Source: Patescibacteria group bacterium
GTDB lineage: Bacteria > Patescibacteriota > Minisyncoccia > 2-02-FULL-40-12 > IGHO2-01-FULL-4-A
Assembly (NCBI GenBank): GCA_038057175.1
Contig: JBBUDS010000001.1
Coordinates: forward strand, 1 to 29,817
DNA length: 29,817 bases
Reading direction: 5' to 3'
A program made the translations under genes and the position numbers. How positions within the stretch are numbered: the first letter of the stretch is position 1; every line of letters begins with the position of its first letter. The notes beneath the pieces are model-generated. The model was given only the letters and a program-made list of their open reading frames with translations, had not been told where the DNA came from and did no database searches. This document shows, piece by piece, positions 7,775-9,367 of the stretch.

Positions 7775-8320
7775 TTGTCTGATGGGATTACCGATTCTTA
7801 TCGAGATACTCGGAGGGGTGAACTTTACGATGATTTTCTTCTAGCACTGGCTGATTATCTCGCAAAAAAGACTGAGGCGAATCTAACTCTTCTAAAAAAA
7901 ACTGCTAATCTCGTTGATGATGTGCCCAGAGGTTTAATGAGTGGCAGAACTAATTTGGCGCAGGGCTTGGATGATATGTTGAATAAACTTTTAGCCCAGG
8001 ATAAACGGACGTGGGGTAAGCTTCTTGGGACCGCTCTTAATACATATCCGACCAAGGTGTACAAGCGACTGAAGTGTATGTCACCATTTGATGGTCAAGT
8101 TCTGATTGCTGTGGATTATGGAATTGGTTTTGTAAATTTACATGGCGATATTCAGAATTTTTTAGATCACTATATTCAGAGAGATAAAAACATGAAAATC
8201 TACGATGCCGATAAGTATATAGTTGCTATCCCAGAATCTGCATTGACTCAGAGTGATGTTACGTGGTTGCATTGCGGATATTTTGGAGTTAAAGAACCCA
8301 GAAAACAAAGAATTGGTTAA
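7775..8320 (+). CDS. Hypothetical protein (181 aa)
   Basis: TTG start with AGGAGG RBS about 6 nt upstream, followed by a terminator. No motif recognised. Confidence 0.7.
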   Translation: MSDGITDSYRDTRRGELYDDFLLALADYLAKKTEANLTLLKKTANLVDDVPRGLMSGRTNLAQGLDDMLNKLLAQDKRTWGKLLGTALNTYPTKVYKRLKCMSPFDGQVLIAVDYGIGFVNLHGDIQNFLDHYIQRDKNMKIYDADKYIVAIPESALTQSDVTWLHCGYFGVKEPRKQRIG

Positions 8321-8338
8321 TCTTCCTTGTTGCCGGAT

Positions 8339-8360
8339 ACCGCCATAAGCGGTTTTTTTT
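8339..8360 (+). terminator. Intrinsic terminator
   Basis: ACCGC-CATAA-GCGGT followed by a T-run. Confidence 0.7.
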
Positions 8361-8401
8361 ATTTGATTTTTTGATATTTTTTTGTCATAATTTACTTACT
8401 T

Positions 8402-8675
8402 TGGGAGATTGTCCCTGGCCGGGCAGGCTAACTTGCCCCGCCTAAATTTTTGAAAAGTATTTGTCATCAAAGCTGGGAGGTCGTCTAATGGTAGGACTGC
8501 TCCCTTTGAAGGAGTCTATCCTGGTTCGAGTCCAGGCCTCCCAGCTTTGATGGGAATTTCAAAAACTTAGGCGAGTGAGTAGGGCCCCGCCTTAGCGGGG
8601 TAAAACAGCGCCCTGCTTGTCCCGCCAAGGCGGGATGAAAAGGCGAGTATCTTGGTTCGAGTCCAGATCTCCCAG
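8402..8675 (+). pseudogene. Degenerate tRNA-Gln-like shell interrupted by palindromes and enclosing the intact tRNA
   Basis: 5' TGGGAGA (8402-8408) is complementary to TCTCCCA-G (8668-8675). T-loop GGTTCGAGTCC at 8654-8664. D-arm and anticodon-arm fragments in between. No clean 7-nt anticodon loop is recoverable. Confidence 0.55.
8474..8544 (+). tRNA. tRNA-Gln(TTG), CCA not encoded
   Basis: Acceptor TGGGAGG/CCTCCCA, D-arm GTCT-AATGGT-AGGAC, anticodon arm GCTCC-CTTTGAA-GGAGT, T-arm CCTGG-TTCGAGT-CCAGG. Confidence 0.95.
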
Positions 8676-8845
8676 TCGACGAACGAAGGTGATTGACGAG
8701 CGAAGGCGAGGAAATGCTGAGATCAGCAGATCGAATGTAGGAGGTACTGAGCGCAGCGACTGAGCGAGAGCGAAGAAGTGCTGAGCTTAGAAAAGCGAAC
8801 GTGTAGCGCGAATGTGTTTTGGTCGGGAGTAACGTCTAATAAAAT

Positions 8846-9367
8846 ATGGAAACAAATTTTCACAAAACAATCATAGGAATTATTGGTGGTCATGAGCATA
8901 ATACAAATCAAGAAGCATTATCTCTTGCGGAAAAAACTGGAGAACAATTAGCGAACCTTGGCATCACAATTGCTTGTGGTGGTGAGGATGGGATCATGGA
9001 AGCAGTTTGCAAAGGAGCAAAACATGCCAATGGCACGACAATAGCCATCACTAAGAGTAATAAGAAAGGAGACGCGAATAGATATGTTGATTATGTAATC
9101 CCAACGGCGCTCGATCTTGCTTTTATGAATGTCCTCGCTTGGTCGTCTGATGCGATAATTGCATTTGATGGGCGTTTTGGAACGATGTGTGAAATTGGTT
9201 TAATTCTCGATATCGGTAGACCTTTAGTGCTTCTTGGTAAACACGAGTTAATTCATACCGATAAAATAAGGGTTCAGAACTTCGCTCATTTCGAAGAATA
9301 TTCTGATGAAAATATTCAGAAAGCTATTGACTTTATAATGCAGCATATTCCTAGAAATATCTCATAA
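8846..9367 (+). CDS. LOG/SLOG-family nucleotide-binding protein (TIGR00725-like)
   Basis: IGIIGG; CGGEDGIMEAVCKGAKHANGTT; DAIIAFDGRFGTMCEI. Confidence 0.8.
   Translation: METNFHKTIIGIIGGHEHNTNQEALSLAEKTGEQLANLGITIACGGEDGIMEAVCKGAKHANGTTIAITKSNKKGDANRYVDYVIPTALDLAFMNVLAWSSDAIIAFDGRFGTMCEIGLILDIGRPLVLLGKHELIHTDKIRVQNFAHFEEYSDENIQKAIDFIMQHIPRNIS

Follow-up and report, generated by a model that had tools for sequence, protein, structure and literature searches.

The Correia (NEMIS) elements of Neisseria and the palindromic elements of Rickettsia are MITE-like repeats that are processed at the RNA level, and the hairpins of Correia elements are cut by RNase III. Mobile insertion cassettes such as MIC231 of Bacillus cereus are bounded by inverted repeats and carry passenger genes and no transposase. 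A survey of rRNA genes of the candidate phyla radiation (CPR) found many short insertions that are not introns at known sites of intervening sequences (IVSs) and suggested their removal by RNase III (PMC11270868); tRNA genes are not mentioned there (PMC11270868). Our search of the literature returned no account of tRNA genes nested within one another in these bacteria. Here we describe a tRNA-Gln locus of a member of the Patescibacteria in which a complete tRNA gene stands in a palindromic hairpin between the pieces of a second tRNA gene, a layout that recurs in ultra-small bacteria for at least nine tRNA types.

The window (the whole stretch of DNA that was analysed, 29,817 nt, with all features below on its forward strand) is contig C1 of an assembly of 695 kb (77 contigs, 40% G+C, 88% complete). 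ARAGORN and Rfam agreed on a single tRNA in the window, an intact tRNA-Gln(UUG) at 8474-8544/5 (listed here as 8474-8544), with a cloverleaf, a 7-nt anticodon loop and an Rfam score of 59.8 bits against a gathering score of 29. CCA is not encoded, and a gene for a CCA-adding enzyme is present in the genome. Among the 37 tRNAs called in the assembly, glutamine is represented once, by this inner gene; the check for a tRNA-Gln(CTG) elsewhere, proposed in an earlier note on this DNA, detected no other tRNA-Gln in the 88%-complete assembly. The neighbouring genes encode DnaX, a lysyl-PG synthase-like protein, an unknown protein, a SLOG protein and transferases.

The earlier note had placed the intact tRNA-Gln at the tip of a long hairpin, with its acceptor stem extended by a 9-nt pair and by a 17-nt pair with one mismatch, and both descriptions were confirmed, the former by ARAGORN, Rfam and a repeat search and the latter by the repeat search. 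The inner helix (8465-8480/8537-8552, acceptor stem included) is 16 nt long and 100% complementary. Its leader strand (8465-8473) and its trailer strand (8544-8552), which begins at the discriminator base, form the 9 bp that lengthen the acceptor stem. Further out, 17 nt at 8439-8455/8557-8573 are 94% complementary, and the outer helix comprises 17-19 bp in total (8437-8455/8557-8575). The folding check gave -136.7 kcal/mol for the whole region, which is far more stable than shuffled sequences (z = -8.7).

Hairpins around tRNA-Gln, likewise flanked by tRNA pieces, are present in two congeners, G004 (87% identity) and G006 (78%). Pairing of the hairpin, including the acceptor-extending helix, is maintained there by compensatory and G-U changes, a covariation seen across three sequences from three species in all. 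The equivalent hairpin, tRNA-Gln and tRNA pieces in two congeners exclude a misassembly, one of the scenarios by which the note would have been refuted. A covariance model of the hairpin plus tRNA returned mainly ordinary tRNAs; matches that seemed to span its full length proved, with the exception of G013, to be normal tRNA genes (Gln, Lys, Trp and others) whose flanks matched by chance.

The live gene is flanked by pieces of a second tRNA-Gln, here called the shell, with a 5' piece at 8402-8414 and 3' pieces within 8580-8675. The 5' piece comprises the 5' strand of the acceptor stem, positions 8-9 and the 5' strand of the D stem, and it is identical at 11 of 12 positions to the start of an intact tRNA-Gln in the congener G002. 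Its acceptor strand (8402-8409) is 100% complementary over 8 nt to 8667-8674 (repeat search), and relative to the inner acceptor stem, the outer one carries a compensated change (GG/CC to GA/TC). On the 3' side, TA GGGC at 8580-8585 would supply the end of the D loop and the 3' strand of the D stem, as read from the sequence and from ARAGORN on the rejoined pieces; GGGC pairs 4/4 with 8410-8413. The next piece (8600-8615, 14/16 identical to the G002 tRNA-Gln) holds a D-loop end, a second candidate for the D-stem 3' strand, position 26, the 5' strand of the anticodon stem and the first three loop bases. The remainder (8640-8675) holds the last two loop bases, the 3' strand of the anticodon stem, the variable loop, the T arm, the 3' strand of the acceptor stem and a discriminator G. 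It is 83% identical to the 3' half of the inner gene (repeat search) and identical to the G002 tRNA at 31 of 36 positions.

When four stretches were removed by their window coordinates, ARAGORN called the rejoined shell pieces a tRNA at default settings. The anticodon of this molecule depends on the junctions chosen and does not read as Gln, its D, anticodon and T stems contain mismatches, and its D loop lacks G18G19. The earlier note had likewise described a tRNA-Gln paralogue with stem mismatches and no clean anticodon loop. At 85% identity, the rejoined shell is closest to the intact, plain tRNA-Gln of G002, compared with 79% for the inner gene. The sequences closest to the inner gene, at 92% each, are the inner gene of G004 and an intact tRNA-Gln of the congener G005; its own shell reaches only 79%. 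As it stands in the genome, the shell does not form a contiguous cloverleaf for either program: ARAGORN in intron mode, a check that had been suggested, called no second tRNA with introns of up to 300 nt, and Rfam at E <= 1 reported only chance hairpin matches besides the inner tRNA and did not detect the shell.

The outer arms of the hairpin (8437-8455 and 8557-8575) also occur elsewhere: they form the inverted ends of a palindromic element with dispersed copies, which we call the frame. The arm motif occurs in 69 of the 105 genomes of the order, with up to 29 matches per genome compared with 0-4 for a reversed control. A typical copy is a hairpin of ~65 nt with a variable loop, and the genome of the window has solo copies of ~65 nt on contigs C3, C51 and C19. 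Our set contained 90 distinct elements, 72 of them non-tRNA copies and 18 loaded with a tRNA. An exact 4-bp direct repeat, the mark of transposition, flanks 16 of the 72 non-tRNA copies (0.3 expected). The frame is thus a mobile element of the MITE type, with many dispersed copies, conserved terminal inverted repeats, no coding capacity and target-site duplications. A search of the 88%-complete assembly for transposases of two families (DDE_Tnp_1 and TnpB) gave no match, and no large arm pairs enclosing open reading frames were found.

Frames also lie in and around genes for other structural RNAs. One copy in G069 is located inside the 23S rRNA gene, as confirmed by Rfam, and is flanked by LSU model positions 568-895, which we take to be the helix 25 region from a by-eye reading against E. 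coli 23S rRNA. On this reading, the copy is a long hairpin that entered the gene of a structural RNA at a site known for IVSs. Another frame is found just before the 5' end of a 23S rRNA gene. The solo copy at C3:3349-3412 in the genome of the window (G000) lies directly after a hairpin and 220 nt upstream of the 5' end of the 16S rRNA gene, and it is likely to fall in the rRNA leader. A further frame abuts a tmRNA gene, and one arm pair of 290 nt lies beside tmRNA.

Two further sets of palindromes were observed. Frames of 110-130 nt in the public contigs L123, L130, L139, L132, L156, L167, L177 and L187 share the flank AACCTTTA on one side and TGCTCA or TACTCA on the other; these flanks, shared between different genomes, imply a conserved insertion site, one that Rfam does not recognise. 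Genome-wide, G000 contains 47 short hairpins in which CCGCC and GGCGG are separated by 2-8 nt, many of them reading TCCGCCAGCTGGCGGA or near it. They may be another family of mini-palindromes or collapsed frames.

Pattern scans for loaded frames covered 401 genomes of the class and all GTDB species representatives. The 18 distinct loaded frames carry tRNAs of nine identities (Gln, Trp, Ile, Arg, Glu, Ala, Val, Met and Pro), and in all 18 the cargo points the same way as the tRNA pieces on either side. In most cases the flanks scored higher against the cargo tRNA than did flanks from loci of other amino acids. No target-site duplication was found on any of the 18; the window copy is flanked by CTTG(C) and TGAG. 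In nests at the D loop, CTTG precedes the frame and TGAA (or CGAA, TGAG) follows it, replacing T17-G18, and in nests at the anticodon loop, TTCA precedes and CAAG (or CGAG, CAGG) follows, replacing a CA. The corresponding tetranucleotides of the window are CTTG at 8432-8435, which, as such or slightly altered, stands before the frame in D-loop nests of Ile, Arg, Val, Trp and Gln, and TGAG at 8576-8579, recognised as a variant of TGAA by comparison of distinct elements. The two junction forms are reverse complements of each other, and the frame is therefore one asymmetric unit that lies either way, with a cargo that always follows the orientation of the shell. An origin of the tetranucleotides from a T-loop target (TTCAAG with duplication of CA) may be considered, as it fits the letters.

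In the clearest nest, that of tRNA-Ile(UAU) in an Azambacteria genome (G294), the acceptor, D, anticodon and T stems of the shell are perfect and CCA is encoded; its D loop holds a hairpin-borne tRNA-Ile, and a second insert of ~68 nt lies at the anticodon loop. The inner and outer tRNA-Ile differ by compensated changes in three stems. A tRNA-Trp nest of Yanofskybacteria follows the same plan as this tRNA-Ile nest, and another Azambacteria locus (L188) has three tRNA-Ala layers, of which the inner two are identical. A search of the 105 genomes of the order for an empty frame in an otherwise intact tRNA (3' arm, then T loop within 28-58 nt) returned none. Readings of the outer molecule as tmRNA-like or Y-RNA-like were dropped, because the anticodon arms of the shells share the identity of the cargo and the shells are decayed in relatives.

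The junction rule explains one of the three small palindromes that the earlier note had removed from the shell. At 8616-8639, CTTG, a 16-nt GC palindrome (8620-8635) and TGAA follow one another, the tetranucleotides being those of loaded frames, and we read this stretch as a frame copy that has lost its interior; it occupies the site of the TG of the anticodon UUG. A second one, the GC-rich near-palindrome at 8415-8431, ends in ..GGCT AA; with CTTG next, this matches how 5' pieces of D-loop nests close (D stem, AA, CTTG). A middle tRNA layer may have left it as a 5' remnant, with acceptor, CA, D stem and the first two D-loop bases; its alignment at 12 of 18 positions with the 5' shell pieces of G004 and G006 is suggestive only. 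The third, at 8586-8599, has a stem of 5-6 bp and a 4-nt loop by sequence and folding and could be either an element that has collapsed or an anticodon arm belonging to the same layer. Together, 8415-8431 and 8580-8599 may represent a third, middle tRNA. The three palindromes are present as described but are not equivalent, with 8620-8635 belonging to a collapsed frame and 8414-8431 possibly to a middle layer.

We judge the shell of the window to be a dead tRNA-Gln gene, because its anticodon loop is broken by the collapsed frame, G18G19 are missing, the shells of congeners are decayed, no splicing endonuclease or RtcB was matched, and relatives have a plain tRNA-Gln. In G004 the T loop and the acceptor of the shell are degenerate, and in G006 no T arm remains. 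Searches of the 88%-complete assembly for the tRNA splicing endonuclease (PF01974) and RtcB (PF01139) gave no match, with controls detected. In metagenome relatives with a SLOG protein 87-88% identical to that of the window, a plain tRNA-Gln is located between dnaX and the ortholog of the SLOG gene, and in two genomes of the same order, tRNA-Gln directly follows dnaX. The comparison with the orthologous locus, as had been proposed, thus revealed an un-nested gene in metagenome relatives but failed inside the genus, where flanking-protein searches in five congeners found no synteny. Between the shell and the next gene of the window lies a purine-rich, gene-free spacer (8676-8845) with a 38-nt direct repeat (8698-8735 and 8762-8799, 76% identical) that has only short matches elsewhere in the genome; close relatives have a small helix-turn-helix gene in its place.

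The tRNA genes of this genome are generally battered. Four small GIY-YIG genes are present, and two of them are located directly 5' of tRNA-Ser(GCU) and tRNA-Pro(CGG), at C34:1-620 and C48:3600-4350 (minus strand), respectively. Ahead of each lies a duplicated 5' part of the tRNA (~31 nt for Ser and ~10 nt for Pro), and in the tRNA-Ser duplicate the D loop also contains two mini-palindromes rich in GC. At these two tRNAs, the GIY-YIG genes look like a second kind of tRNA-gene invader. A tandem in G005 (L004, 1300-1660) consists of a 5' fragment of tRNA-Gln, a truncated GIY-YIG-like ORF, assigned from its translated sequence alone, an intact tRNA-Gln and a tRNA-Gln-like gene with a broken acceptor. 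At least six tRNAs (Cys, Leu, Thr, Val, Trp and Arg; C29, C53, C61, C77, C16 and C47) are followed 90-125 nt downstream by a copy of their 3' end, with an intervening module that is shared by at least four of them. In five copies, the module contains the motif GAAC..GGAGCGATG and starts with the complement of the T arm. These modules are a separate family of tRNA-associated mini-elements. At C44:3261-3440, tRNA-Leu(CAA) is followed after 11 nt by a perfect 62-nt copy of its positions 24-85.

We propose that a replacement tRNA cassette overwrote the resident tRNA-Gln gene and that the nest is transcribed from the promoter of the shell, a reading to which we assign a probability of roughly 0.68. 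The origin that we favour is insertion of a cassette that already carried tRNA-Gln. A resident tRNA-Gln with its own promoter would have been interrupted in the D loop at T17-G18 by a small palindromic cassette, made up of ~19-nt inverted arms and the conserved junction tetranucleotides around a complete tRNA-Gln(UUG) with its leader-trailer helix. The cargo would then have taken over the function and the resident gene would have become the shell, which would later have accumulated several mismatches and received, in its anticodon loop, a second frame that has since collapsed. The anatomy of the locus, the dispersal and mobility of the frames, the repeated cognate nests, the decay of shells and the un-nested genes of relatives are observed; movement of the loaded cassette itself, as opposed to loading in place, the enzyme behind it and processing by RNase III are inferred. 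The cargo always matches the shell, presumably because, with single-copy tRNAs, only insertion into the cognate gene would be survivable. One option raised in the earlier note, a decayed tRNA that served palindromic elements as a landing pad, fits the evidence, with the addition that the long hairpin is itself such an element and the live tRNA its cargo. A further option, a structure that shields the tRNA from integrases or nucleases, found no support.

Expression of the cargo would depend on the gene that it replaced. The only promoter-like site in 8250-8900 is located at 8363-8391 and consists of TTGATT and CATAAT, spaced by 17 nt, with TG before the second hexamer (extended -10). This hexamer ends ~10 nt before the first base of the shell, and a -10-like box is found just before the shells of G004 and G013 too. 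Since the sole promoter-like site precedes the shell, the inner gene would be read from the promoter of the gene that it replaced. The transcript of the whole nest would fold into a two-tier hairpin, and its long duplex would probably be cut by RNase III, as for rRNA intervening sequences; an RNase III gene is present on C19. RNase P, 3' trimming and CCA addition would then complete the inner tRNA.

Three observations are awkward for the insertion of a loaded cassette. No loaded copy has a target duplication, unlike the empty frames; the cargo can point either way within the asymmetric frame, which would be unusual if the two formed one mobile unit; and the identical layers of L188 fit self-insertion but fit local duplication equally well. 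An alternative order of events is that an empty palindrome entered a tRNA loop and that local duplication or repair then put a copy of the tRNA inside, without movement of any loaded cassette. Such loading in place is compatible with target duplications that occur on empty copies and are absent from loaded ones, with a cargo that is always oriented like the shell in either direction of the frame, and with the identity of the L188 inner gene and the adjacent layer. We nevertheless consider it unlikely. The many compensated changes in three stems that separate the inner and outer genes of G294 argue against local copying, as does the inner gene of the window, which shares 92% identity with inner genes of other species but 79% with its own shell. 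The intermediate that it requires, a tRNA intact but for an empty frame, was not found in the 105 genomes of the order, and we know of no mechanism that places a direct copy of the flanks inside a hairpin, which we also counted against loading in place.

A functional outer tRNA is far less probable still. Here the hairpin and the small palindromes would be removed from the transcript of a multi-intron or split tRNA, and the pieces would be joined or held together; the earlier note had listed such a multi-intron tRNA among its options. Pairing of the shell acceptor (8/8, with a compensated change), the tRNA call by ARAGORN on the rejoined pieces, and the perfect stems and encoded CCA of the G294 shell would suit such a molecule. 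In the window, however, the rejoined anticodon is not that of Gln, the anticodon loop is broken, the D loop lacks G18G19, and mismatches affect the D, anticodon and T stems. The homologous shells of G004 and G006 are clearly degenerate, their T arm or acceptor pairing being lost, neither RtcB nor a splicing endonuclease was matched in the 88%-complete assembly, and tRNA-Gln is already supplied by the inner gene. Least credible of all is the footprint of a lost integrase island or prophage with its attachment site in tRNA-Gln, which would leave a duplicated tRNA end and a chance match on the 5' side: tRNA genes are common attachment sites, and other tRNAs of the genome have 3'-end copies ~90-125 nt downstream, but here a complete gene is flanked by both 5' and 3' fragments, the outer gene is broken within its D loop, its 5' piece is perfectly paired to the distant 3' end, a 139-nt hairpin from a dispersed family fills the space between, no integrase is encoded among the neighbouring genes, and the arrangement is repeated at 18 distinct elements, so that this scenario, offered as a possible refutation in the earlier note, is excluded.

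Returning to insertion of a loaded cassette as the preferred reading, we tentatively suggest, at odds that we regard as slightly unfavourable, that the loaded frames form an undescribed class of self-complementing selfish cassettes. The hairpin frame, with its fixed junction tetranucleotides, would insert at CA/TG in the D or anticodon loop of an essential single-copy tRNA gene, destroy that gene and supply a replacement in its own loop. Only cognate insertions would survive, successive rounds would build Russian-doll nests because the cargo is a target in its turn, and the empty frames in rRNA, tmRNA and spacers would be gene-less relatives. If cassettes do overwrite essential tRNA genes and carry the replacement, this would be a new strategy of selfish elements, with addiction arising through gene replacement rather than through splicing or toxins, and it would open a route for the horizontal exchange of tRNA genes among ultra-small bacteria. 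The nests also have a practical consequence: tRNA finders report the inner gene only and are blind to the shells, and phylogenies and synteny comparisons of tRNA genes in Patescibacteria may therefore mix resident and imported genes. Finally, the occurrence of the frame family in 23S rRNA ties short rRNA insertions of CPR bacteria to a mobile element with recognisable ends.

The frame family resembles Correia/NEMIS and the Rickettsia elements in that it is short, non-coding and dispersed, with terminal inverted repeats that form a long hairpin, with short target duplications on empty copies and with insertion into genes and transcripts. Unlike those elements, the frame can hold a complete tRNA gene in its loop, and its loaded copies are found inside a gene for their own tRNA. 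The loaded frames are bordered by junction tetranucleotides and not by target duplications, and a partner transposase was not found among the two families tried. With mobile insertion cassettes, the loaded frames have in common an inverted-repeat frame around a passenger gene that is not a transposase. In contrast to those cassettes, the passenger is a tRNA of 71 nt, the element measures ~110-140 nt, and the target belongs to the passenger's own gene family, which makes the insertion self-complementing.

Members of the frame family in 23S rRNA are comparable to intervening sequences: a long hairpin lies in a structural RNA and would be cut out with the ends left unjoined. A tRNA processed in this way would remain cut, and rescue would come from the cargo rather than from tolerance of fragmentation. 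Archaeal and red-algal multi-intron, split and permuted tRNAs are likewise interrupted at the D and anticodon loops, with pieces that on paper rejoin to a cloverleaf. Those systems need a bulge-helix-bulge together with splicing endonuclease and ligase enzymes, and we detected none of these; their interrupted genes are functional, whereas that of the window locus is decaying. The nest is also similar to integrative elements that target tRNA genes, where a selfish insertion brings a replacement sequence and leaves a displaced remnant. Such elements encode an integrase, replace only the segment beyond the crossover and leave one remnant. The duplication of an attachment site that they produce differs from the arrangement in the window, in which both remnants are present with 139 nt of hairpin between them. 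In the nest, the whole gene is supplied and two remnants are left, with no recombinase nearby.
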